Shown here: positions 5,332 through 29,803 of the stretch, in pieces
Numbering within the stretch: the first letter of the stretch is position 1
How the letters are laid out: each line of letters opens with the position of its first letter
Assembly (NCBI GenBank): GCA_030606485.1
Contig: JAUWGH010000001.1
Span: forward strand, 630,001-662,000
Source: Promethearchaeota archaeon
GTDB taxonomy: Archaea; Asgardarchaeota; Lokiarchaeia; Sigyniarchaeales; SOKP01
Direction of reading: 5' to 3'
Length of the DNA: 32,000 nucleotides
The notes under the pieces: generated by a model
Told to the model about the DNA's origin: nothing
Database searches by the model: none
Seen by the model: the letters and a program-made list of their open reading frames with translations, nothing else
Translations under genes and position numbers: made by a program

Positions 5332-5507
5332 TATCTCATCATCCCTTTTGAATACATGATTAATATATTTTCAAACTTATTTAATTCTTAATTATTATTA
5401 TTTATTACTTTTTTTATTGAGATATTTATTATATAAATAAAGTATTTAATTATTAATTTCTACTTTAATATATTATATTTTCAAAGTAAAATTTTAAGCG
5501 AAATAAA

Positions 5508-6461
5508 ATGCCTGAAGTAAGAATTAAAAGTCCAAATATTGATGATATTTTCAATAAATGGAAACAAAAAGCATATAGACTAAAGAAAAAAGAATTAGAA
5601 AAGCAATTTGGAACCAAAGGTGCAGTATTTTCACTTGATACTATTTCTGCTGGTGAAACGGTAAAAGAAACCATGAAAGAAGCATCCATCTACTTTTTAG
5701 TCGAACAGAAAGTAGAAGCATCCAAGGATCAGAAAGAAGAGCGTGGGACTATAAAAGAACTAAGTAAAAATACTTTTTATTCATTAAAAAGTGCTAAAAT
5801 TGATAAAAAAAAGTGGAAGGGACCTGATATTGTGCCAATGTATGATACAATAGAACCTGTACCTTGCAGTGATTGTAAAGGAAAAGGATACACCGAGACG
5901 AAATGCAAAGAATGTACCAACGGCACTAAAACAACCGATATGATAGTATTAACTGGCGCTGAAGCGAAAAAAGAAAAAAAACCGTTCAAGTATGATTGCA
6001 ATGTTTGTTATAAAACTGGAGTGATTAGAAACAGATGTAAAACATGTGATGGATACGGAACAACTTATAAATGGAAATTATTACCTGTGCCTTTCACATC
6101 TAAAATGGCTAATGTTCCGAAACTCTATTCAAGTGCTCCAACGAAATATGAAAAGCAAATTGGTGAAGAGTTAGGAGAATTAATTGAATCTGTTGAAGGA
6201 ATTAAATTTACTAATGTAAAGGATTTATCTGATAAAACAATTGAGCCAAACCTTGGTTACTATAATAAAAATATCTCGAAAGTAGTTAAAAGAGCTGCAA
6301 ATGACTATCAGAAATTTGAAAAGGACAAAGACTATAAGATTAAAAGCCAAATTTATGTATTCCCTCTAATACAAATATTTTGTGAGAGTAAAAAAGGGAA
6401 GAAATTCGAGATATATGCTGTTGGGAGCGAACAGAAGTTTATCACGTATAGCAATTTCTAA
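5508..6461 (+). CDS. DnaJ-type cysteine-rich Zn-finger protein without J-domain (SSUH2-like architecture)
   Basis: Four CxxC(xGxG) motifs: CSDCKGKG, CKECTNG, CNVCYKTG, CKTCDGYG. No HPD motif. The C-terminus IYVFPLIQIF...FEIYAVGSEQKF resembles my recollection of the SSUH2 C-terminal pattern. Confidence 0.7.
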   Translation: MPEVRIKSPNIDDIFNKWKQKAYRLKKKELEKQFGTKGAVFSLDTISAGETVKETMKEASIYFLVEQKVEASKDQKEERGTIKELSKNTFYSLKSAKIDKKKWKGPDIVPMYDTIEPVPCSDCKGKGYTETKCKECTNGTKTTDMIVLTGAEAKKEKKPFKYDCNVCYKTGVIRNRCKTCDGYGTTYKWKLLPVPFTSKMANVPKLYSSAPTKYEKQIGEELGELIESVEGIKFTNVKDLSDKTIEPNLGYYNKNISKVVKRAANDYQKFEKDKDYKIKSQIYVFPLIQIFCESKKGKKFEIYAVGSEQKFITYSNF

Positions 6462-18583: not shown

Positions 18584-19024
18584 TTATACTAAATTATCAA
18601 TGTATATTATTTTAACAACAGATAATAATTCCTCTAATACTTTGTCGATTTCTTCTTCTTTTTTCATATAAACAGGTATGTTCCTTATTTTTCCAATTGC
18701 CAGAGAATAGCAATCAGCAATAGAAATTGGAAAATTACACTTCAGATGAGAGGCTTCATCTCTCAATTCGCTTTCTGAATAAATTATAAAATCTTTTAAA
18801 AATTCTGAGGCATACTTTATCGCATTCTGAAATCCGCTTCGACGACAAAAAATATATTTAAGTTCCATATCAACTAGAGGACTTATATAAAATATCTTGA
18901 CTTGAGGATTTTCTAAAACCTTTTGAGAAAATTTTTTGCCTAAAATCGAATCCTCAAGGAATTCAACTAAAACCCCAGTATCAACTGCGATTGAAGTGAG
19001 TTGAGAATCTTTTTTCTCGTTCAT
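18584..19024 (-). CDS. vapC: PIN-domain (VapC-type) ribonuclease toxin
   Basis: IAVDTGVLV, ELKY, ISIADCYSLAIG acidic PIN motifs; 146 aa; overlaps the upstream antitoxin-like gene by 44 nt. Confidence 0.85.
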   Translation of the reverse strand: MNEKKDSQLTSIAVDTGVLVEFLEDSILGKKFSQKVLENPQVKIFYISPLVDMELKYIFCRRSGFQNAIKYASEFLKDFIIYSESELRDEASHLKCNFPISIADCYSLAIGKIRNIPVYMKKEEEIDKVLEELLSVVKIIYIDNLV

Positions 19025-19262
19025 AATCTTCTTTCCTCAATTCTTTAAGCAATACTTTACCTTCGCCAGGTTTAAGTATTCCTTGATATTTTTTAATATT
19101 TTTAAGAAATACCTCTTTATTCACTTCGGTTTTTCGATCTTCAAGCAAATAAATAATAGCTTCATCATATGTAACCCTCTGCCCCCCCATCTTTTCGAGT
19201 TGATTCATAACAATGAATAATTTTTTCTTGGTTTCTTCAGAGATTTGAATTGTAGTTGCCAT
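18981..19262 (-). CDS. vapB: VapB-type antitoxin (ribbon-helix-helix-like N-terminus)
   Basis: MATTIQISEETKKKL...VTYDEAIIYLL is a typical archaeal RHH antitoxin start; lies immediately upstream of and overlaps the PIN gene. Confidence 0.75.
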   Translation of the reverse strand: MATTIQISEETKKKLFIVMNQLEKMGGQRVTYDEAIIYLLEDRKTEVNKEVFLKNIKKYQGILKPGEGKVLLKELRKEDYEREKRFSTHFNRS

Positions 19263-19348: not shown

Positions 19349-20242
19349 TTATGTAAAAAATAATGAATAAAGGGAAGGAAATTGAATAGATGGTATAAAA
19401 TAAATGAGACTTAATAAATAATACACAAAAAATACTCCAATTGTGAGAACAAAAATAACATCCTTCTTTTTAAAAGGAATTTCTATCAGATTGGTTCGAG
19501 TTTTGTATAAACCAAAGCATCTATTTTCCATTGAAATTGATGTGATATCTCCTTTTCTTAAAATTGAGACCAGAATTGTGATGAGCCTTTCTTTTATGAA
19601 ATTATACGCTTTTTTTATTGTATTGACCTTTTCTCTTCCAAATCCTCTTGCTCTTTGAGCAAGTCCGATTGTTCTTGCCTCCTGTTGTATTAAAGGAATA
19701 TATCGAAGTCCAACCATAAAAGCAAAACTATATTTATAAGAAACGCCAGTTTTCATCAATGCGTAGACAAAATCCTTCATGGAAGTTGTATGGGTAAAAA
19801 TTATTGCAGATAAGAATAGGATAAGGACCCATAATGCGTTCCTTAATGCATAATAAACGGCCAATCTTCTAATCGGTAAAAAAGTAAGATTAAATAAATA
19901 GAATAAAATTTGAGCTTCTTCACTGGGTATTGCGTTAAAGAATATATTTAAGATTATAGAAAAAAGACTTAAGATTAGAATCCATTTAAACTTATAAAAA
20001 ATAGATTTAATTGACATTTTGCTTGACAACGCTAGAAAAAAGGTTAATACAAAAACGATTGAAAGAAAAATCAAGCTCTCGATTGAGAATACAAAAATTG
20101 TAAATAATATCAAGAAAAACAATTTGCTTAAGGGATTTAATTTATGCAAAAAAGAATTGTTTGGAACGTAAGAAAATAAATCCCTTGTCTTATCTAAATT
20201 GAATTGTTTCCTTTTGATTTTTGGTTTTTTGCTTTTAGTCAT
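19349..20242 (-). CDS. ecfT: ECF transporter transmembrane (T) component
   Basis: LHKLNPLSK, GLRYIPLIQQEARTIGLAQRARG, SMENRCF (the two Arg-containing coupling motifs); multiple TMs. Confidence 0.92.
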   Translation of the reverse strand: MTKSKKPKIKRKQFNLDKTRDLFSYVPNNSFLHKLNPLSKLFFLILFTIFVFSIESLIFLSIVFVLTFFLALSSKMSIKSIFYKFKWILILSLFSIILNIFFNAIPSEEAQILFYLFNLTFLPIRRLAVYYALRNALWVLILFLSAIIFTHTTSMKDFVYALMKTGVSYKYSFAFMVGLRYIPLIQQEARTIGLAQRARGFGREKVNTIKKAYNFIKERLITILVSILRKGDITSISMENRCFGLYKTRTNLIEIPFKKKDVIFVLTIGVFFVYYLLSLIYFIPSIQFPSLYSLFFT

Positions 20243-20248
20243 ATCTTT

Positions 20249-21940
20249 TTAGATTTTACCTAATTTTTTATTTATAATATTTAGTAAAGAGATTGGCCCT
20301 AAACTTTGATATTTTTGGAAATATGAATAATTTTCTTCATATTCTATTAAATTACCGTTATCTAACTCAATTATTTTATCCACATGATTTAGTAGTAAAT
20401 GATAATCATGTGAAGCTATAATAATTGTTTTGCCTTTTTGCTGCTCCTGATAAAGTATTGTTATTAATTCATCTATTGTTTTTTGATCTTGACCTATGAA
20501 TGGCTCATCTAATAAAATAATTTCTGGAGCATAAATAAAAATCGAAGATAAATTTAATCTCCTTTTCTGCCCCCAGCTAAGGTTAAATGGATTTCGATCA
20601 TATTCAACATTTCCAACCATGCTCATTAACTGATCTAAATTGTCCTCAGCAATTTGATTTAGGAGATTAAAATTTTTTGGGGCATATAGAATTTCATCTC
20701 TTATTGTATTCTTAAATAGCATATTTTCGGGATTCTGGAAAATAAATCCTATCTTTTCAGCATATTCGTAAAAATCAATTTCTAAAAGATTTTTTCCTTT
20801 ATAATAAACTAGACCCTTAGATGGATTATATAATCCCGCTATTAGGTAAAGCAATGTTGTTTTCCCGCAACCATTATGACCAACTAATCCAATAAAATCT
20901 CCTTTAAAAATTTTTAATGAAATATTATTTAAAGCCATTCTATTGAGGTTAGGGTATTTAAATGAGATATCTTTAAATTCTAAAAGAACTTCGCCTTCCA
21001 TTCCTTCAGAATATTTTTTATGGTTCATAAAATTCTCATAGAGTTTTTTTTTTAATAATTCCAAATTCTTATTCGTTTCATTATTAATCATTTCAATCGC
21101 AGTATCAAAAAACAACGGAATTTCACGTTTTGGGGTTTCCAAGGCAGAAATAAAAAGATCTGGAATCCAAGGGATTCTTAGATTACAAAATTTTAAATCA
21201 TTGAAGTGGTTTCGAAATAGATCATTAATTGAACCTTTAAGTGCGATTTCTCCATCATAATTTAATATTAACAAATAATCAGCAATATCTAATACCTTAG
21301 ATAATCTATGTTCAACAATTATTAGGGATAAATCCAATTCTTTATTTTGATAGAGTTTTTTTAATCGATTCAATAATAAAGTGGAAGATTTCTGGTCTAA
21401 AAAGGCAAAAGGTTCATCCAAAATTAAGATTTTAGGCTTCATTACAAGGTAGGAACAGATTACAACGATTTGCTTTTCTCCTCCACTTAAATCATCAATA
21501 TCTCGATTGATTAAATGCTCAATATTCATAAATTCTACGATATCATCAACTCTTTCGATTATTTCCTCCTTCGGAAGATTTAAATTCTCTAATCCAAAAG
21601 AGATTTCATCTCTAACAGTAAATGTCACTAATTGCTCATCGGGGTTTTGTTTAACTAATCCCACCTGTTTTGATAATTGAGCTAAACTTTGTTCCCAAAC
21701 ACTTAGACCGAGAACTTTTACATCTCCCATCATAAACCCAATTTGTCTAAAAGGAATAATCCCATTTAGGGCATTACATATTGTAGATTTTCCACTTCCG
21801 CTCCCGCCAGCAAGAATTAGAGTCTTTCCCCTTTCCAATTCGAATGATATGTTTTTTACTGCAGGTCTAACACTATTATTATTTCCATATATAAACGTAA
21901 ATCCATCAAATTCTACGGCAAGATTGTTTTGTTTGTACAT
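20249..21940 (-). CDS. ecfA: ECF transporter fused double ATPase (A-A')
   Basis: Walker A GGSGSGKS and GHNGCGKT, Q-loops QNPD/QNPE, signatures LSGGEKQ and LSWGQKR, Walker B LDEPF twice, H-loops. Confidence 0.93.
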   Translation of the reverse strand: MYKQNNLAVEFDGFTFIYGNNNSVRPAVKNISFELERGKTLILAGGSGSGKSTICNALNGIIPFRQIGFMMGDVKVLGLSVWEQSLAQLSKQVGLVKQNPDEQLVTFTVRDEISFGLENLNLPKEEIIERVDDIVEFMNIEHLINRDIDDLSGGEKQIVVICSYLVMKPKILILDEPFAFLDQKSSTLLLNRLKKLYQNKELDLSLIIVEHRLSKVLDIADYLLILNYDGEIALKGSINDLFRNHFNDLKFCNLRIPWIPDLFISALETPKREIPLFFDTAIEMINNETNKNLELLKKKLYENFMNHKKYSEGMEGEVLLEFKDISFKYPNLNRMALNNISLKIFKGDFIGLVGHNGCGKTTLLYLIAGLYNPSKGLVYYKGKNLLEIDFYEYAEKIGFIFQNPENMLFKNTIRDEILYAPKNFNLLNQIAEDNLDQLMSMVGNVEYDRNPFNLSWGQKRRLNLSSIFIYAPEIILLDEPFIGQDQKTIDELITILYQEQQKGKTIIIASHDYHLLLNHVDKIIELDNGNLIEYEENYSYFQKYQSLGPISLLNIINKKLGKI

Positions 21941-21956
21941 ATCTCTTTCAAAATTG

Positions 21957-22634
21957 TTAACTTTTATCTAAATTTATAATCTCATCTGTTTTTACAGTAA
22001 AAATGGCTTGAGCTGCAATAGGTACACCTGCTTTTATTAAGTAGTCTTTAATAACTTTACCTAATAAACCAGCTATAAACACACCTGATAAAAATGCAAA
22101 AATCATTGCTAATATGAATAAAGATATATGAAGAGTAAATAATTTTCCCGAAATATACCAAAAAACGGGAACTTGAGTTATATTTCCAATTCCACCTGCA
22201 ATCCCCCAACCTAATCTTGAATCGCCTTCATTAAGGTGTTCCATAATAAAAAAACCTATAAGTAATGAAGCACCTTCTAATAAATTTATTCCTATAATAA
22301 CTATTCCATAAGAACCTGTTATAAGAAATTCTAATATTCCTTTTGTAAGCATAGAGATAAGAATACCGGGTTTATTTCTTGTTAATCCGTAAAATATAGC
22401 AACCCATATAATGTGATGAGCAGAAGTTAATTGGGTCCCGCCCGTAAGTGGATACCACACTTTTACTAACAGACTAAATGGTATTACACTTGAAATAATG
22501 CCTCCTATAGTCCCAAAAATCGTTGCATATATTAAGGTCCTAATTGAAATTCCAAATTTACTTTTTTCAATTTCTAAGTTTTCTACTCCAGTCCTTTTAA
22601 ATTCTTCTTTTGAGTCTTCAAGATTTTTTTCCAC
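21957..22634 (-). CDS. ECF transporter S component (YkoE/ABC_cobalt-like), operon-dedicated
   Basis: About 6 TMs; PLTGGTQLTSAHHIIW...GLTRNKPG...KGILEFL...G pattern; directly precedes the A-A' and T genes; GTG start with SD. Confidence 0.78.
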   Translation of the reverse strand: MEKNLEDSKEEFKRTGVENLEIEKSKFGISIRTLIYATIFGTIGGIISSVIPFSLLVKVWYPLTGGTQLTSAHHIIWVAIFYGLTRNKPGILISMLTKGILEFLITGSYGIVIIGINLLEGASLLIGFFIMEHLNEGDSRLGWGIAGGIGNITQVPVFWYISGKLFTLHISLFILAMIFAFLSGVFIAGLLGKVIKDYLIKAGVPIAAQAIFTVKTDEIINLDKS

Positions 22635-22642
22635 AGAGTAAA

Positions 22643-22648
22643 ACCTCC
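22643..22648 (-). promoter_or_regulatory. Shine-Dalgarno GGAGGT for the S-component GTG
   Basis: acctcc on the + strand = GGAGGT on the minus strand, 8 nt before GTG 22634. Confidence 0.6.
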
Positions 22649-22655
22649 ATTAATT

Positions 22656-23228
22656 TTAATATACTCTAATTGCAACCACATGTTTTGCAGTGTATATAGT
22701 ATTCCAATCTGGAAACAAACTTCTATTCACTATCCCTTCTATCGGGCCTTTATCCGGTTCTCCTCCCATGGCCATCCCGTTTCTCTCATATGCCAATAAA
22801 ACCAATTCAGGATTTTGTTCAACTAATGAAAAAAGGATATTTCTGCTAGTATATAAATCGCTTGCTTCAAACCGAAACCTTGTTGAATTCGGGTTTAAAC
22901 AATCTTCTTTGTTAAAAATATCCCAAATAACCGCCCCAGAATAATTATCACTCCAAGTATTTCCAAAATCATTAATAAAATAAAATTTTTGATTTATTAC
23001 TTGTTGATAATCGGATTTCAACTGAGTTAATGTGATATTAACTTCTCGTTTTACATTTCCGTATATTTTAATTGTAATTTCAGAGCCGTCATTAGTATAT
23101 TTTTCTACTAATTGTAAATTATAAATTGTTAGACCAATTGATGCACCTATAATTATCCCAAATAAAATAAAAATAGATATATTCCTTTTTGATAAAAAAT
23201 CTTTAATTCTATGTTTTGAATTATTCAT
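22656..23228 (-). CDS. Membrane-anchored sulfite-oxidase/Moco-binding-fold domain protein lacking the Mo-ligating Cys
   Basis: N-terminal TM; IKIYGNVKREVNITLTQLK, YSGAVIWDIF, FRFEASDLY, LLAYERNG, GPI, AKHVVAIRV follow the Oxidored_molyb pattern, but there is no Cys in FYFINDFGNTWS. Confidence 0.72.
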   Translation of the reverse strand: MNNSKHRIKDFLSKRNISIFILFGIIIGASIGLTIYNLQLVEKYTNDGSEITIKIYGNVKREVNITLTQLKSDYQQVINQKFYFINDFGNTWSDNYSGAVIWDIFNKEDCLNPNSTRFRFEASDLYTSRNILFSLVEQNPELVLLAYERNGMAMGGEPDKGPIEGIVNRSLFPDWNTIYTAKHVVAIRVY

Positions 23229-23243
23229 TTTTATAAATAAAAA

Positions 23244-24155
23244 TCAATTATTCTTAATGCGTATAAATTTCTTTTTCCAAATTATAATTAATCCAGTTAA
23301 AAAAATCAAAATCAATAAAGTAAAACCTAATCTATAGCCTGATATTAATGGAGTTGGAAACTCAGAAAAATATAAAGCATAAATCCACGATATTGCGTGA
23401 TCTTCACCTTCTCCTGTACCATATTCATTATCCAATATAGCGATTGTAAATTCATATATAGTTTTTTCTGCGAATTGAACATCATATTGCTCACCAGTTG
23501 TTAATGGTCGGGAAATTTCTATTTGATAACGATTTGTATCATTAAACCAGGTTCCATAAATCATACCTGTTTCTATTTGACTAATTTCTGAATTGTGGGG
23601 ATACCAACCATCATCTCCAAAATATGTATCATAACCGTTATATGAAGAACCGTTTTCTTTTCCTATCCGATACCCCCATTGCCAAGTATCCACATCTCCT
23701 CCTCCATACGGACCAGTCCTCATACCTTGGTAAAATGCCGCGGTATAATTTAACATATTTATGTTCCAACACATTGAAAATTGATCCCAATTACTCAGCG
23801 GAGTTGAATCCTCCCAACTAGCCAAAATAAATAAGTGAGTATCGCTATGGACAAAAGACATATTAACGTACCTTAAAAAAAAATCATCAGAGTAAAAATC
23901 AGAGGCAACGGGTATCAATATGGAATTATTTTTCCCAGGAACATGCCAAAAATCTTCATTATCCCGACCATCAAGAGTAATAATCGCATTTGGGTCATAA
24001 TAGGCATCCAAATGAATAGTATTATGATAATATTGGCAATCTCCTTCACCAGGCCACGAAGATCCCATAATTATAGAAGTAGATACAGCTTGAATTATAA
24101 GAGATATTAAAATTAATAAAAAAAAAAGGATTAGAGATTTTTTATAGAATGCCAT
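23244..24155 (-). CDS. Surface protein with DOMON-like / ethylbenzene dehydrogenase gamma (EbdC)-type heme-binding domain and Loki-CTERM-like anchor
   Basis: Signal peptide; ITLDGRDNEDFW, LFILASWED, DQFSMCW, GMR, VDTWQW, YQIEISRPLTTGEQYDVQF, IAILD...H; ISGY + TM + KKK tail. Confidence 0.72.
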   Translation of the reverse strand: MAFYKKSLILFFLLILISLIIQAVSTSIIMGSSWPGEGDCQYYHNTIHLDAYYDPNAIITLDGRDNEDFWHVPGKNNSILIPVASDFYSDDFFLRYVNMSFVHSDTHLFILASWEDSTPLSNWDQFSMCWNINMLNYTAAFYQGMRTGPYGGGDVDTWQWGYRIGKENGSSYNGYDTYFGDDGWYPHNSEISQIETGMIYGTWFNDTNRYQIEISRPLTTGEQYDVQFAEKTIYEFTIAILDNEYGTGEGEDHAISWIYALYFSEFPTPLISGYRLGFTLLILIFLTGLIIIWKKKFIRIKNN

Positions 24156-24176
24156 TATTCCATCACGATTATATTT

Positions 24177-25280
24177 CTATTTTTCTATATCTATTCTAGT
24201 TAGCCACTTGTTATATCCTTTTTTAGATTGCCCTGGAACTATTAACTTATAAGGACCACCATCAACGAGTTTTAAAGACGTAGGATTTCCAGAACCCACT
24301 TTTTGATGCTGAATCTCTGCATTCACAATCCACATTAGATTGCCCTCTGGGGCATGAATTGAATCCACTGGCATCTTAACTCCAGTATCAGGGATACAAT
24401 CTCCAACCTCATCTAAAGTACAATTGACGATATATCGTTCCACCAATCCTGACTCAATATCTGTTTTATTGTATCCTGAGCTTGGCCAAGAAAATCCGTC
24501 TACACAATTCCATGTAATGTTATAATTTACCACAATATTCATCTCCTTTATGAAATTTTTTAATGTCCTTCCCTTTATTGTGCAATCCCAGTCAAAATAT
24601 TCTGTTCCATTATCATCATACCACCAATGGTATGAATTATAATCACTTGCTCCTTCCATCATTTTAGTCGAATCTATTGTATAATCCAAAATTCCGTTCA
24701 CATAAACTGGAATTACCCATTCAGACGTAATCTCTATATGAGTTATGTTCATGATCGCCGTAGAAGCATCAAGATCGCCCCCAAATAATGAGAAGTTTCC
24801 ATAGGCAGCACCTAACGGAGAATTCTTTAACCAAACATCATTAGCCATTATTCCAATAATTAGAGGGTTTGTTGTTTGAGGATTTTTTACCATATTTCCA
24901 TCGGAATTAATCATAACTCCAACATCTGTATCCAGATTATCGGAATAATTATAAACCTTTACACTCCAAGGAGCATGAAACCCAAAATAATTAAATAATT
25001 CTACGGCATTTACACCAGTTATATTACATTCTTGTCCTGTTGTTTTAGTATCCTCAAATTTTATTTGAGTTAAATCTCCAGATTCAATCAAATCTATTAT
25101 TGTTGAAGCATTTATTGACTTCTCAGTTCCATCCCAATATTTTATTTTGAGATCTTGTAGAGGAGGGGAAGTATCAGATGTTGTCCCAATTTGCGTAATA
25201 AACCATATTCCACCGCTGACTCCAGCAATAATCACAGCGACTACTATTATACTTGTTATAATTAGATTTCTTTTCTCCAA
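24177..25280 (-). CDS. Membrane-anchored extracellular protein with two tandem degenerate sulfite-oxidase-fold domains
   Basis: N-terminal TM anchor, many N-x-S/T sequons. Domain 1 has ITGVNAVELF and IIGIMAND; domain 2 has IKGRTLKNFI, CVDGF and GGPYKLIVPGQSKKGYNKWLTRIDI (cf. G.P.RL..PG...KW...I). TTG start. Confidence 0.65.
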   Translation of the reverse strand: MEKRNLIITSIIVVAVIIAGVSGGIWFITQIGTTSDTSPPLQDLKIKYWDGTEKSINASTIIDLIESGDLTQIKFEDTKTTGQECNITGVNAVELFNYFGFHAPWSVKVYNYSDNLDTDVGVMINSDGNMVKNPQTTNPLIIGIMANDVWLKNSPLGAAYGNFSLFGGDLDASTAIMNITHIEITSEWVIPVYVNGILDYTIDSTKMMEGASDYNSYHWWYDDNGTEYFDWDCTIKGRTLKNFIKEMNIVVNYNITWNCVDGFSWPSSGYNKTDIESGLVERYIVNCTLDEVGDCIPDTGVKMPVDSIHAPEGNLMWIVNAEIQHQKVGSGNPTSLKLVDGGPYKLIVPGQSKKGYNKWLTRIDIEK

Positions 25281-25352: not shown

Positions 25353-26078
25353 TTATTTTTTTAAAATATAGCTAAAGATGGGAATAAAAAGAAAATATTT
25401 GTCATTCTCTATAGCTACATTCATTTTTTTATTTTTAAAATTATGATTAGTCAAAATTTTTTCAAAAAATTTCAGTTCTTTTAATAAATTATCTTTATTC
25501 TTACTCGAAATCCAAGGAACACTTATACAATATCGCTCAACTATCTCGAATTTTTGAGAAAAAAATTGATTCATTTTTCTCCCCACTTCAGGATCGGCTC
25601 CATTATCTTTCAAATTTGAGATTAATGCATCTTTTAAACCTGTTTCTGGAGATTCAATAACCCCTCCATAATCTGGCTCTGCAAGTATTAATAGAATACC
25701 TTCTTTTTTCAAAATCCTATGAATTTCATTGAAACATTTTTCAAGATCCTTAATCCATAAAAATAAATAATGTGTAATAATCACTTCAAATCTCTCATCT
25801 TCGAAGTTATTATTTAAAATATCCATATATTGAAGATTTGCCTTGATGTTCTCTTGATTTAAATTGTCTTTGGCAATTTTTAAACGATGTTCATCAATAT
25901 CAATTCCATATAAATTTAGATTAAATTCTTTCCCAATTTCTTTCAGAAGTGCTCCAGTGCCACAACCAATTTCCAGAAGATTTGTCTTGGTCTCCAGATT
26001 TATTATCTTATAAATATGATTCCTAAATTCATAAGTCCACTTTAATTGTTCGCTGAATCTTATATTCCAATCGATCAT
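25353..26078 (-). CDS. Class I SAM-dependent methyltransferase
   Basis: Motif I LLEIGCGTG, acidic YGIDID, MDI, FEVIITHYLFLWI, ILKKEG, EPDY. Confidence 0.9.
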   Translation of the reverse strand: MIDWNIRFSEQLKWTYEFRNHIYKIINLETKTNLLEIGCGTGALLKEIGKEFNLNLYGIDIDEHRLKIAKDNLNQENIKANLQYMDILNNNFEDERFEVIITHYLFLWIKDLEKCFNEIHRILKKEGILLILAEPDYGGVIESPETGLKDALISNLKDNGADPEVGRKMNQFFSQKFEIVERYCISVPWISSKNKDNLLKELKFFEKILTNHNFKNKKMNVAIENDKYFLFIPIFSYILKK

Positions 26079-26123
26079 AAAATAAATGTTTAGTTAATGA
26101 TAAAAAAAAATAAAAGAAGATAA

Positions 26124-27515
26124 TTAAAAATTTGCAACATTACAGATTATTTTCTTTTGGTCTATATATAATGGACATCCACCGCCACAGATTCGTAATA
26201 ACTCACATTTTTTGCATTTAGGTTCAATATATTCATGCTTTCTAATGCTTTTAAACAGCTTTGAATTCCAAATAGCATCCCAGTCATCTTTTAATATATT
26301 CCCCACAGGTTCATAGTAAGATTGGCAAGGCAAAACATCTCCATTTGGTTCAATTGCAATGCTTGTATTTGCTGCAGAGCATCTTTTTGGTCCCAAACCA
26401 ATTTCTACTGGATTAATAGAACAATATTGAGTTGGAGTATACCAGATAAATTGCATGTCTAATTTTCGACCTCGATTATTTATCTTGTTTAATATTGGTT
26501 CTAATTCTTCTTCAGCGATGCCGTGCTCAAACTCCTTTCCCTTACCAGAGTAAATTAATCCATTACAAGCAAAAGTTTTTACGTTTAATTCATGAAGAAA
26601 ATTTATTGTATCTTTAATTCCCTCGACGTTATGCTTGCATAATGTAGTATTAGTCATAAAGAAAATATCTTCTTTTTCAAAATTTTTGATTGCTTGAACG
26701 GTTTCATCAAACCCATCTACACCAACCATTTTATTATGGATTTCTTTATCATGAGATTCCAAAGTTATCTGAGCATAATCTAAACCTTTCTGTATTGCTT
26801 GTTTTACTAAATTTTTATCAGCAAATTTCCTTCCATTAGTTATAATCCCCATTACAAAACCTTTCTCTTGCCCATATGCAATCAAATCCAGAAAATCATC
26901 TCTTACTGTTGGTTCTCCTCCCGTTAAGGCTATATGTGGGATTCCAACTTCCCATAATACATCCATAATTTTTTTCATAGACTCTGTATCAAATTCTGGA
27001 AAATCTCGTTCCCTTGCAACATAACAATGTTCGCAATCATTATTACAGTTGTAAGTAATTGCTAAATCAATTCTTAACGGAAATTCTGAAGCTTTAAATG
27101 GCTTTTTAGCGTCTATTCCAATTTGGGAAAAGGGATCAACATCTTCTTCTGATAATAAAAATTCTACTTTATCTAAAAGGGCATTATAATCTTCTTCAAC
27201 CTCCTCCGCTGTTGTCCGATAATATTTTATAAAAAATTCTTGAATCTCTTCCAAAGATTTTCCTTCAATAAATTCCTTGAAATACATCATAGCAAATTGG
27301 TTTAAATAAAGAACATATTTTGCATCAATTATTAGGATTGCTTTGCTATTTTTCAATATTCTTAAGTGAAATTTATGGGTTCCAGTATTTTTAAATTCAA
27401 TTATGTTTGAATAAACTCTCGGAATAGAATCATCAAAAACGAATTTTGGTAATATCTTCTTTTTTAATTTCTTAAAGAATTTTTTTGTTTTTCCTTTGGG
27501 TTTTACTATACTCAT
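26124..27515 (-). CDS. Radical SAM/SPASM enzyme with N-terminal PqqD/RRE-like domain
   Basis: CNNDCEHC, LTGGEP, ITNG; seven-Cys SPASM CSAA...NGDVLPC...CKKC-x5-C-GGG-C...C. N-terminal AILII...LYLNQFA...GKSLEEI..F...Y....EEVEEDYNALLDKV is PqqD-like (3 strands + 3 helices). Confidence 0.92.
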   Translation of the reverse strand: MSIVKPKGKTKKFFKKLKKKILPKFVFDDSIPRVYSNIIEFKNTGTHKFHLRILKNSKAILIIDAKYVLYLNQFAMMYFKEFIEGKSLEEIQEFFIKYYRTTAEEVEEDYNALLDKVEFLLSEEDVDPFSQIGIDAKKPFKASEFPLRIDLAITYNCNNDCEHCYVARERDFPEFDTESMKKIMDVLWEVGIPHIALTGGEPTVRDDFLDLIAYGQEKGFVMGIITNGRKFADKNLVKQAIQKGLDYAQITLESHDKEIHNKMVGVDGFDETVQAIKNFEKEDIFFMTNTTLCKHNVEGIKDTINFLHELNVKTFACNGLIYSGKGKEFEHGIAEEELEPILNKINNRGRKLDMQFIWYTPTQYCSINPVEIGLGPKRCSAANTSIAIEPNGDVLPCQSYYEPVGNILKDDWDAIWNSKLFKSIRKHEYIEPKCKKCELLRICGGGCPLYIDQKKIICNVANF

Positions 27516-27518
27516 CTT

Positions 27519-29423
27519 TTATCTACCTCCTCCTGCACACGCACATGCACAACCAGCACAAGCACAAGCACAAGCGCAACCTCCAGCTCCACCACGACCA
27601 CCACGACCTCCTCTACCACCAGTACTTCTTGGTCGAGGAGGGGCAACTGTATTAACTATACTCTCAGCGAAATTAGTGAAATTCTTAACTATTGTATTGC
27701 TAACATTTTCCATACCCCGAACAATCGAATCTGAGAATGTATGGATATTAATATACTGTTTAGGAAGTAAATTCGCACTTGTAGATCTTCCGGGATGATA
27801 TGTATAGTAATGATGCCGAGGCCAATAATAATGATACCAATAATAACGCGGATACCAATATGGATAATGAATATAATAACGGTGACTTAGATATCGCTCC
27901 GAACGTTTTTCAAATAGGTCATCTAAAACTATCCAATCATATTCATCTTCAATATCTTCAAATTCTATTTCATTTGGCATTTTTTTAATTGTCTCCCATG
28001 CTTGGTTGATCATGTTATCATAGTAATAAGTTGTAGCGTCCGATTCATACCCTCTCATTTTCTTATAGGTTGCTTTTATTAAATCAACTAATAATTTTTC
28101 CAATTTTGCCTTTTTTACAGTCCCTTTATCTGGTCCTTCAGGATCCACCGCTTTTAAAAATTTTCTCTGATATGCTTTCATCTTTTGAATCCCCTTTGTT
28201 GACATAACTTCAAACTTTAATGGGTCAGTTTTAATTACTTTTAAATGACCTGTTCGAATTAACCCAAAAATTATTAGAAAAAGAACTTTATTCAAAGGAG
28301 TATTCTTTATAATAGCCGCTTCTACAACTGTAAGATTTTTATTAACCCCTACACTTTCAATTTTAATCTCTGGTTTCTGATATGGTAATCTAGAACGACT
28401 TATTACTTTATAAATTAAATAACCAATCATTCCAAATCCAGCGATTATAACTCCGAAAAATAATAAGATGAATATAATATCACCAAAAGCACCCCATAAT
28501 ATAAAATAAAAAATCGCTCCAATGAAAAATATCATGAAAAATATACAAACAAGGTCTCCTGGGTTTGAACGTTTCCTAGGTGGGTAATATTTCTTCTTGT
28601 AATTCCTTATATATCTATATGTAAGATAAGAAAAGCCAACTATTAATCCGATTATGCTTATTGTCAATAATATGCTTATAATAAATAATACTACTCTTGG
28701 ATCGGCCGTCCAGCCAATAGATACATCTACAGCATCCTTAGGAAATGAAACCCCATAAGTATATTGTTGCATTTGAACATTTGTTTCAGTCCATGTATAA
28801 ATTAAATAATCGGTGCCATCATGTTCCATGAAACTGTAGCTATCATATTCCCTGTAATGCCATTTAACTTCGTTTCCATTTGTGAAATTTGGTGGAAAAT
28901 AAAAATTAACTTCAAGATATTTATAAGTAGAACAAAAACTAGAACCAAACCAAGTTGGAGAAAATTCAACACTTGCCAAACTTTCATTTTCATAATCGCC
29001 AAAAATCATATTTGGGTTGTTTCCAATCACATAAAGCTGACCAGATTCTCCTGGATCAATATAATGCCCAGTAAGCCATATTTCAACACCAATATCGATG
29101 TATTCTGATACTCTGATATTATGGCTATATATGTCATGTCCATCAATTTTTGCCTTTACACTAGATAAATCATAATCATTAGTCGGAAAGCCAATATCAA
29201 CTACGTTAATCGGATCTGCCCAAGAATGACAAGTAAAGTTAATCCAATATTCAATCGTAATAGACCCATCTAGTTCAATATAAACATTTGTTTTCATATA
29301 ATCAACATCAAAAGAATACGTATAAGCCTTAGCGTTTGTACTGGTCGAAACAATGAAGATTATTGCTAATCCAATAATACTACTATAAATTAACCATTTT
29401 TTGTTCATTTTTTTTCTCACCAC
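27519..29423 (-). CDS. Membrane protein (DUF2207-like: signal peptide, extracellular beta domain, 3 TMs, cytoplasmic domain) with C-terminal RGG repeats and CACACACAGCACACAGGGR tail
   Basis: YSFDVDYMKTNVYIELDGSITIEYWI is the DUF2207-like start; three hydrophobic segments at about aa 243-340; LVVEAAII...LIIFGLIRTGHL; Tyr/His/Trp-rich segment; Cys-Ala tail. Confidence 0.85.
   Translation of the reverse strand: MVRKKMNKKWLIYSSIIGLAIIFIVSTSTNAKAYTYSFDVDYMKTNVYIELDGSITIEYWINFTCHSWADPINVVDIGFPTNDYDLSSVKAKIDGHDIYSHNIRVSEYIDIGVEIWLTGHYIDPGESGQLYVIGNNPNMIFGDYENESLASVEFSPTWFGSSFCSTYKYLEVNFYFPPNFTNGNEVKWHYREYDSYSFMEHDGTDYLIYTWTETNVQMQQYTYGVSFPKDAVDVSIGWTADPRVVLFIISILLTISIIGLIVGFSYLTYRYIRNYKKKYYPPRKRSNPGDLVCIFFMIFFIGAIFYFILWGAFGDIIFILLFFGVIIAGFGMIGYLIYKVISRSRLPYQKPEIKIESVGVNKNLTVVEAAIIKNTPLNKVLFLIIFGLIRTGHLKVIKTDPLKFEVMSTKGIQKMKAYQRKFLKAVDPEGPDKGTVKKAKLEKLLVDLIKATYKKMRGYESDATTYYYDNMINQAWETIKKMPNEIEFEDIEDEYDWIVLDDLFEKRSERYLSHRYYIHYPYWYPRYYWYHYYWPRHHYYTYHPGRSTSANLLPKQYINIHTFSDSIVRGMENVSNTIVKNFTNFAESIVNTVAPPRPRSTGGRGGRGGRGGAGGCACACACAGCACACAGGGR
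27522..27620 (-). repeat. Coding low-complexity repeat: (GGR)3 GGAGG then (CA)4 G (CA)3 GGGR
   Basis: Read codon by codon. It has 7 Cys and mixed synonymous codons (TGT/TGC; GCT/GCA/GCG; GGT/GGA; CGT/AGA). Confidence 0.9.
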
Positions 29424-29803
29424 TTCACTTTATCTTTAGGTAATTTAATTGCTTCCCCACATTTCTCACAATAAACTATTTTTTTTTTCTTCATTTCTTC
29501 TGAAATTTCAAGTGGTGTGCCGCAATTTTTACAAATCATTTCAGATGGTACATATCGTGTCTCTTCTTCCAAATCCTTAGGTTCTTTAACTTTAACAATT
29601 TTATACTTGGTTCTCTGAATTAAACGTAAGATTATAACTAAAAGAGTAATGGCAATAATTATCAATAAGACTCCAATTATCAACCGTAAAACCGTTTGTG
29701 TTGGATCTACGGGGGATGCAATTATATAAACCACACCGAAAAATGTAAGAACCACAAAAACAATTATTGCTATAATTTTTAAAAAGATATTTGAATCACT
29801 CAT
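29417..29803 (-). CDS. Small 2-TM membrane protein with C-terminal cytoplasmic Zn ribbon
   Basis: Two hydrophobic helices, then CKNCG...CEKCG; its stop overlaps the start of the next gene (7-nt overlap). Confidence 0.8.
   Translation of the reverse strand: MSDSNIFLKIIAIIVFVVLTFFGVVYIIASPVDPTQTVLRLIIGVLLIIIAITLLVIILRLIQRTKYKIVKVKEPKDLEEETRYVPSEMICKNCGTPLEISEEMKKKKIVYCEKCGEAIKLPKDKVKW

Follow-up and report, generated by a model that had tools for sequence, protein, structure and literature searches.

We analysed a 32,000-nucleotide (nt) stretch of DNA from a Promethearchaeota archaeon (the whole of which we call the window) and found on its minus strand a run of six genes for a predicted energy-coupling factor (ECF) importer and three surface proteins; the cargo of this importer is fairly likely to be a molybdenum or tungsten (Mo/W) pterin cofactor, i.e. 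tungsten- or molybdenum-molybdopterin or a close derivative. On the wider proposition, that many Asgard archaea and Anaerolineae are unable to make the cofactor and import the finished metal-pterin from neighbours by way of an ECF transporter, with a recycled cofactor-binding fold as the capture device, we are evenly divided. The initial annotation had named Mo/W-pterin, heme or a metal chelate as what the surface folds might capture for the ECF unit. Capture of the pterin is favoured by domain fusions, by a molybdenum cofactor (Moco)/W-cofactor riboswitch in bacterial relatives, by the exclusion between the system and the Moco biosynthesis genes among Asgard genomes, by adjacency to moa/moe genes and by synteny, all of which, like the gene order and the family memberships, were observed directly in the genomes. 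Heme and metal chelates gained no support, and we rejected both as cargo because no supporting context was found.

Demand for the cofactor in the window's genome

The genome to which the window belongs (G000; 100% complete, 13 contigs) carries ten AOR-family genes and two PF00384 genes, yet genome searches returned no MoaC, MoaE, MoeA_N or MoaA C-domain, and its sole PF00994 protein is CinA-like; the missing domains suggest a cell that can neither make the pterin nor insert metal into it. The usual tungstate/molybdate binding proteins also appear to be absent: the genome search found no PF13531 (ModA/WtpA-type) protein, and the sole PBP_like_2 protein is PstS, adjoining PstC. A search of the whole genome with PF00174 (Oxidored_molyb) gave no match at E 0.001 or better, and therefore it holds no canonical sulfite-oxidase (SUOX) enzyme.

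The ECF unit and its cysteine-less SUOX-fold domain

Three of the six genes make up a dedicated (group I) ECF importer, a solid assignment on family matches, with uptake itself predicted. The transmembrane coupling (T) component, a CbiQ-type EcfT of 297 amino acids (aa; 19349-20242), matches PF02361 (CbiQ; 92.3 bits, 4.5e-26, cut-off 25) and, in part, TIGR02454, and the fused EcfA-EcfA' (A-A') ATPase (20249-21940, 563 aa), which has two ABC_tran domains, matches TIGR04521 at 352.1 bits (cut-off 330) and TIGR04520 at 336.4 bits (cut-off 315). The S component (21957-22634, 225 aa), which has several hydrophobic segments and whose gene lies 16 nt from that of the ATPase, gave no direct match in a Pfam scan; its place in the YkoE/PF09819 family comes from a profile of its own family, which matches YkoE among solved structures (PDB 5EDL; 3.7e-21), from its language-model neighbours, which are PF09819 clusters (0.93), and from a hidden Markov model built from the Anaerolineae S domain, which matches the window's S protein at 65 bits. 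Upstream of it lie the genes for the surface proteins p190 (22656-23228, 190 aa), p303 (23244-24155, 303 aa) and p367 (24177-25280, 367 aa, TTG start). A check of the open reading frames (ORFs) gave intergenic gaps of 21, 15, 21, 16 and 6 nt from p367 down to EcfT, and six close-set minus-strand genes that include S, A-A' and T, as first annotated, stand with their coordinates exact.

We conclude from its family profile that p190 is a SUOX fold without the Mo-binding cysteine that is not expected to be an enzyme, and we propose it as the capture domain for the pterin cofactor and as part of the conserved core. Taken alone, p190 scores 19.2 bits against Oxidored_molyb, below the cut-off of 24, and searches of solved structures with the single sequences of p190, p303 and p367 gave no match; word-based homologue searches returned 4-6 close relatives for each of the three. 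Orthologues of p190 in two other Asgard families reach 47.9 and 48.9 bits on PF00174, and a profile built on p190 with its orthologues gives a nearly full-length match to the Moco domain of SorA (3.5e-11) and also matches pterin-binding PruR (PDB 7kom, 2.7e-8). Alignment by hhalign of the p190 family with the domain fused to the Anaerolineae S component (see below) gave 76% probability (2.2e-5), and a single N-terminal hydrophobic anchor in p190 fits an outward-facing domain.

With the SUOX molybdoenzymes (SorA, sulfite oxidase, YedY/MsrP) p190 shares a homologous Moco-binding domain, but it differs from them on three counts: the column aligned to the Mo-ligating Cys of SorA reads Y, H, D, V, E, L or T (Cys in 0/12 members); the hairpin that follows this Cys in SorA is missing or shortened in the p190 family; and the Pfam scan of p190 found no further domain, so neither a dimerisation nor a redox-partner domain. 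It is the absence of the Mo-ligating cysteine that leads us to set p190 apart from the SUOX enzymes. Disarmed SUOX folds had been assigned initially to p190 and, in tandem, to p367; the assignment is borne out for p190 by the SorA and PruR profile matches and the missing Cys, and the tandem fold of p367 was not confirmed.

PruR proteins (PDB 7kos, 7kou, 7kom) are secreted Cys-less SUOX folds for which pterin binding has been shown by crystallography, the pterin contacts of Agrobacterium tumefaciens PruR being N102 and Y104 of an N-x-Y motif (PMC11194511). p190 is likewise a small, anchored, Cys-less SUOX fold in whose family the Tyr of the pterin-contact motif is kept (D-x-Y, aligned to N-D-Y of 7kom). 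PruR, however, pairs with the cyclic di-GMP enzyme DcpA and signals, whereas the partner of p190 is a transporter; neither the six genes nor those directly flanking them include a DcpA-type GGDEF/EAL partner, and hence the p190 system is not a PruR signalling pair. A second difference is the predicted cargo, here of molybdopterin type. A third is that where 7kom reads Trp (G-P-F-W-L-I), presumably the stacking Trp of the PruR paper, the p190 family has Arg/Lys, as do true Moco-binding SUOX domains.

Synteny, fusions and bacterial operons

A survey of gene neighbourhoods found the surface and ECF genes together in at least seven Asgard families and in Anaerolineae, and in each Asgard family that we examined the SUOX-like domain was encoded in synteny with S, A-A' and T. 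The entire neighbourhood is conserved in close relatives, which tells us little. In L103, whose DOMON protein is 42% identical, the same six genes lie in different surroundings, and G213 also has all six. Family f2 has a tandem SUOX gene, a SUOX gene, S, A-A' and T, with no DOMON gene; in families f7, f12, f22 and f24 the S component and the SUOX-like domain form one protein, and the genes for A-A' and T come next; a p190-like gene adjoins S in family f27; and locus L002 retains p190, S, A-A' and T only. The ECF unit together with the SUOX-like domain makes up the conserved core.

An exhaustive search with the S protein returned 62 clusters only. Relatives of S beyond the archaeal clade are 340-460 aa long and consist of PF09819 followed by one or two C-terminal Oxidored_molyb-like domains, and we take these fusions as a strong argument for a joint function of the S component and the domain. 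Two close relatives of S, P0008 (759 aa) and P0013 (777 aa), are fused with the A-A' ATPase in one polypeptide. Separately, one metagenome contig (L009 703-5961 and neighbours) carries three S-SUOX fusion paralogues; close to these lie genes for a 1752-aa protein containing three or more SUOX-like domains and for a PKD/Oxidored_molyb protein, and an SBP_bac_11 (ModA-like) gene.

The fused two-domain form was confirmed in 147 stretches of species genomes, and the best 80 of these loci, which we kept, are all from Anaerolineae/Chloroflexota. Directly upstream of the fused gene, the Moco/W-cofactor riboswitch (Rfam RF01055) was present in 5/8 loci scanned (59-80 bits, cut-off 36), and a covariance model built from these matches placed it on the same strand and up to ~530 nt upstream in 63/80 loci. 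The model also found it in two metagenome loci that encode a different fused form. Where the riboswitch is missing, a PadR gene often takes its place. Both aptamers inspected lack stem P3, and the P3-less variant has been linked to tungsten-cofactor genes by Regulski et al. (PMC2408646). The operon order is conserved: riboswitch, S with two SUOX-like domains, A-A' ATPase, T, and then the accessory genes, which are a membrane protein with two CxxCH motifs, an NPP-type phosphodiesterase lipoprotein and two lipoproteins above the Oxidored_molyb cut-off (49.9 and 39.8 bits). In locus L026, two further tandem Moco/W-cofactor aptamers (5339-5685, minus) face a 913-aa gene, away from the ECF operon, and a third aptamer controls the ECF operon itself. 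A cobalamin riboswitch lies after the Anaerolineae operon and before a ~690-aa gene in three loci (L055 14752-14890, L072 15119-15257 and L091 15196-15334), so that two cofactor-sensing operons stand side by side.

The two-CxxCH protein (~307 aa, N-terminal anchor; L022 4666-5589, L007 9424-10350) is likely a diheme c-type cytochrome and could be a functional analogue of the archaeal p303. At the place corresponding to the NPP-type enzyme, which is likewise fused to a SUOX-like domain, an Asgard f7 locus has a Metallophos phosphoesterase, unrelated to the NPP type, joined to a SUOX-like domain. The presence of two unrelated surface phosphoesterases would point to extracellular cleavage of a phosphoester or pyrophosphate bond in the cargo, and such a cut would fit the trimming of dinucleotide forms of the cofactor.

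The surface proteins might alternatively form an extracellular redox or sensing module that lies by chance beside an ECF importer whose cargo, heme or a metal chelate for example, is unrelated. This is what one might expect from an EB_dh/DOMON-like p303 with an invariant Met and His, from the two CxxCH motifs of the Anaerolineae membrane protein and from the loss of p367 and p303 in some relatives. We give this explanation very little probability, given that the SUOX-like domain is covalently fused to S in many lineages and syntenic with the importer throughout the Asgard families examined, that the Mo-ligand Cys required for SUOX catalysis is absent and that no heme-uptake or siderophore genes accompany the module.

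In architecture and gene order (S, fused A-A', T) the system resembles the thiamine/hydroxymethylpyrimidine (HMP) importer YkoEDC (PMC5037267), as it does in riboswitch control, here of the bacterial cousins. It differs in that the present S component belongs to a separate subfamily, often with fused or adjacent outward-facing SUOX-fold domains, and in that the riboswitch of the bacterial cousins is of the Moco/W-cofactor class and not of the thiamine pyrophosphate (TPP) class, with no link to thiamine seen. We rejected thiamine/HMP as cargo, as neither a TPP riboswitch nor thiamine genes were seen.

Phyletic pattern and the moa/moe genes

We surveyed one sample of 201 Asgard genomes, the same for every query. 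AOR is nearly universal (197/201), MoeA_N is present in 97/201 and MoaC in 92/201, and the S family in 77/201; S and MoaC occur together in 3/201 and S and MoeA_N in 4/201, such that 74/77 carriers of S have no MoaC and 73/77 no MoeA_N (naive odds ratio of S versus MoaC ~0.016, kinship ignored). Within the window's own family (41 genomes) S is found in 20, MoaC in 17 and both in three, and the two states alternate within several genera and within families f7, f12 and f22. Among 30 Anaerolineae carriers checked, AOR is present in 30/30, and 12/30 are without both MoaC and MoeA_N. PF13531 was found in 152/201 Asgard genomes, many of them weakly, and is too broad a family to be informative.

One of the three genomes that hold both S and MoaC is G213, of the window's own family. 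In this genome (L123, G213:C8, 164-14022, minus), the ECF module is followed directly after T, and on the same strand, by MoaC-MoaA-MoaD-MoaE-MoeA-MoaB-MoeA and then by a MoxR-type AAA gene and a VWA gene. In L103 the order is T, a MoaD-like gene and then the same AAA and VWA genes, which looks like the G213 arrangement after loss of the pathway, with the MoaD-like gene a putative relic. The G213 adjacency is an archaeal link to Moco that is independent of the bacterial riboswitch.

These data bear directly on whether the ECF unit could instead import tungstate or molybdate, with the SUOX-like domains binding the oxyanion or serving otherwise. Moco/W-cofactor riboswitches commonly control modABC-/tupABC-type metal importers (PMC2408646), the module adjoins moa/moe genes in G213, and the window's genome, without a ModA/WtpA-type binding protein, would need a route for the metal if the cofactor were made in the cell. 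A metal importer, however, benefits only a cell that has MoeA and synthesises the pterin, and would be expected to travel with the pathway; the great majority of Asgard carriers lack MoaC and MoeA_N, and in the window's genome none of the pathway genes sought was found. The exclusion pattern is therefore our main argument for a pterin cofactor and against tungstate/molybdate. Moreover, YkoE-family ECF S components carry organic cofactor precursors (5EDL; PMC5037267), the known ligands of the Cys-less SUOX fold are pterins (PMC11194511), and the surface phosphoesterases and heme proteins would have no role in oxyanion uptake. We accordingly hold oxyanion import to be quite improbable. ModABC, WtpABC and TupABC share with the present system its metabolic neighbourhood (the Moco riboswitch regulon and clustering with moa/moe genes), but they belong to another transporter class, use a periplasmic binding protein and carry inorganic cargo, and the present system, in contrast, is found mainly where the metal-using pathway is missing.

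The cargo might also be something other than the finished metal cofactor: a precursor or metal-free form (cyclic pyranopterin monophosphate, cPMP, or molybdopterin), a non-Moco pterin or another vitamin. Five Anaerolineae carriers that keep MoeA and are without MoaC fit the import of a metal-free intermediate. cPMP is also more stable than Moco. PruR, in turn, binds simple pterins and not Moco (PMC11194511), and YkoE itself binds thiamine (PMC5037267). Against this, neither the window's genome nor 73 of the 77 Asgard carriers has MoeA_N, and the window's genome, which is without MoaE as well, would be unable to complete a precursor; thiamine or a non-Moco pterin, for its part, explains neither the Moco-class riboswitch nor the exclusion with Moco genes. 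We therefore consider a cargo of this kind unlikely, and retain the Mo/W pterin cofactor as the predicted cargo.

Proposed route of uptake and points against it

For a Mo/W pterin cargo, we envisage that the anchored, cysteine-less p190, perhaps with p367, would bind the pterin at the cell surface, pterin binding being known from the related PruR proteins, and would hand it to the YkoE-family S component; discharge of the cargo from S into the cell would then be powered by the A-A' ATPase and T, and the cofactor would go on to supply the ten AOR-type enzymes of the genome. p303 may hold heme and maintain the pterin, which is sensitive to oxygen and to oxidation, in the reduced state; alternatively, it may assist in capture. 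The cargo, the hand-over and any redox step are what we infer.

Several observations weigh against this account. The free cofactor is chemically labile (PMC9026282), so that a usable external pool of it is unproven. Riboswitch control and moa/moe adjacency would equally fit a molybdate/tungstate importer, and the window itself carries neither RF01055 nor another direct cofactor signal. AOR would have to receive the imported cofactor in the absence of MoeA-type enzymes, by a means that this account does not supply. At the level of residues, p190 itself reads D-L-Y at the pterin-contact motif, and in its G-P-x-R/K strand the usually basic residue is Glu; the predicted structure of p303 is poor (predicted local distance difference test, pLDDT, 51) and that of p367 unusable (pLDDT 29). 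As for the phyletic pattern, most genomes in the survey are metagenome-assembled and kin are not independent, so that its significance by Fisher's test is overstated. Three or four Asgard genomes hold both the system and biosynthesis genes, as do about half of the Anaerolineae carriers, and in 35 Asgard genomes both the S family and MoaC are missing despite the near-universal AOR; family f5 is an example, with AOR in 21/21, MoaC in 2/21, the S family in 0/21 and neither S nor MoaC in 19/21. For these 35 genomes, another cofactor route or incomplete assemblies must therefore be assumed.

Notwithstanding these points, the prediction matters because a 2021 review describes Moco as having to be made de novo, being too unstable for uptake, with Caenorhabditis elegans the sole known exception (PMC9026282). 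Dietary Moco in C. elegans (PMC9026282, PMC9793310) is alike in that a finished cofactor is obtained from outside; it differs in that the organism is an animal, its transporter is not known and the presumed source is protein-bound Moco, and we imply no homology. In the literature that we searched, no prokaryotic importer for Moco or molybdopterin is described, and one preprint offers speculation only, on outer-membrane proteins. If true, the present system would be the first prokaryotic uptake system for a Mo/W pterin cofactor, and a dedicated importer of this kind would overturn the de novo-only view of Moco for prokaryotes and would explain genomes with up to ten or more AOR-type enzymes in which the whole biosynthetic pathway is nonetheless missing. 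It would add the Mo/W cofactor to the traded 'vitamins' of anoxic communities; cofactor cross-feeding would be one concrete basis of dependence on partner organisms, and the resulting Asgard dependency would be testable and could help cultivation. It would also reveal a new mode of ECF transport, with binding domains tethered outside. CbiN and NikK/L are known exceptions to the statement that ECF systems lack outside helpers. Outward-facing cysteine-less folds on an ECF importer make microbial uptake of Moco or W-cofactor directly testable, and since the bacterial versions are compact and riboswitch-controlled, the idea can be tested in ordinary laboratory hosts.

Accessory surface proteins and flanking genes

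p303 and p367 are accessories of the window's own family that are dispensable in some relatives: both are missing from L002, and p303, which is found only in the window's own family, is also not present in L135. It is the existence of relatives without p367 that leads us to call it an accessory, and our roles for the two proteins in the system are guesses.

The initial reading of p303 as DOMON/EbdC-like is probable. Its own match to EB_dh (PF09459) reaches 24.7 bits, below the cut-off of 33.3, and covers residues 200-247 only; two relatives, P0073 and P0074, carry PF09459, and its language-model neighbours are EB_dh clusters (0.98 and 0.91). M145 and H253, which are candidate axial heme ligands, and a GGGDVD motif are invariant, and hydrophobic segments at residues 1-33 and 268-298 (N- and C-terminal anchors) fit an outward-facing domain. 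We thus describe p303 as probably DOMON/EB_dh-like and as a possible heme-b or ligand-binding module.

p367 has a single N-terminal anchor (hydrophobic segment 3-32), which likewise fits an outward-facing domain. Together with P0071 and P0072 it shows a weak Oxidored_molyb match at residues 335-365 (12.3-16.8 bits; 12.5 for p367), its last 30 residues resemble the final strands of the sulfite-oxidase Moco domain, and among its language-model neighbours is a cluster (0.90) with Oxidored_molyb in 41% of the proteins. It is related to the first module gene of G213 (28% identity, 1e-22), and hhalign of the p367 family with the p190 family, the Anaerolineae domain and the L135 tandem protein gave no significant match. 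In L135, from another family, the gene at the position of p367 encodes a genuine tandem of Oxidored_molyb domains (29.6 bits, two stretches), which makes the tandem SUOX reading of p367 plausible but unproven.

Across the window the G+C content is ~29%, and no tRNA or Rfam family was found anywhere in it. Upstream of the module, minus-strand genes at 25353-29803 encode a methyltransferase, an RRE-type radical-SAM/SPASM enzyme, a 634-aa protein and a 128-aa zinc-ribbon protein. These lie beside the module only in close relatives (L001, L004, L005), and as they are not beside it in L103 or G213, we rejected the radical-SAM, methyltransferase and 634-aa genes as parts of the system and assign the upstream genes, on their distribution among relatives, to a separate one. 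Just downstream of EcfT (18584-19262, minus), a 93-aa ORF overlaps a PIN-domain gene; the two are probably a toxin-antitoxin pair, and L001 holds a second such pair.

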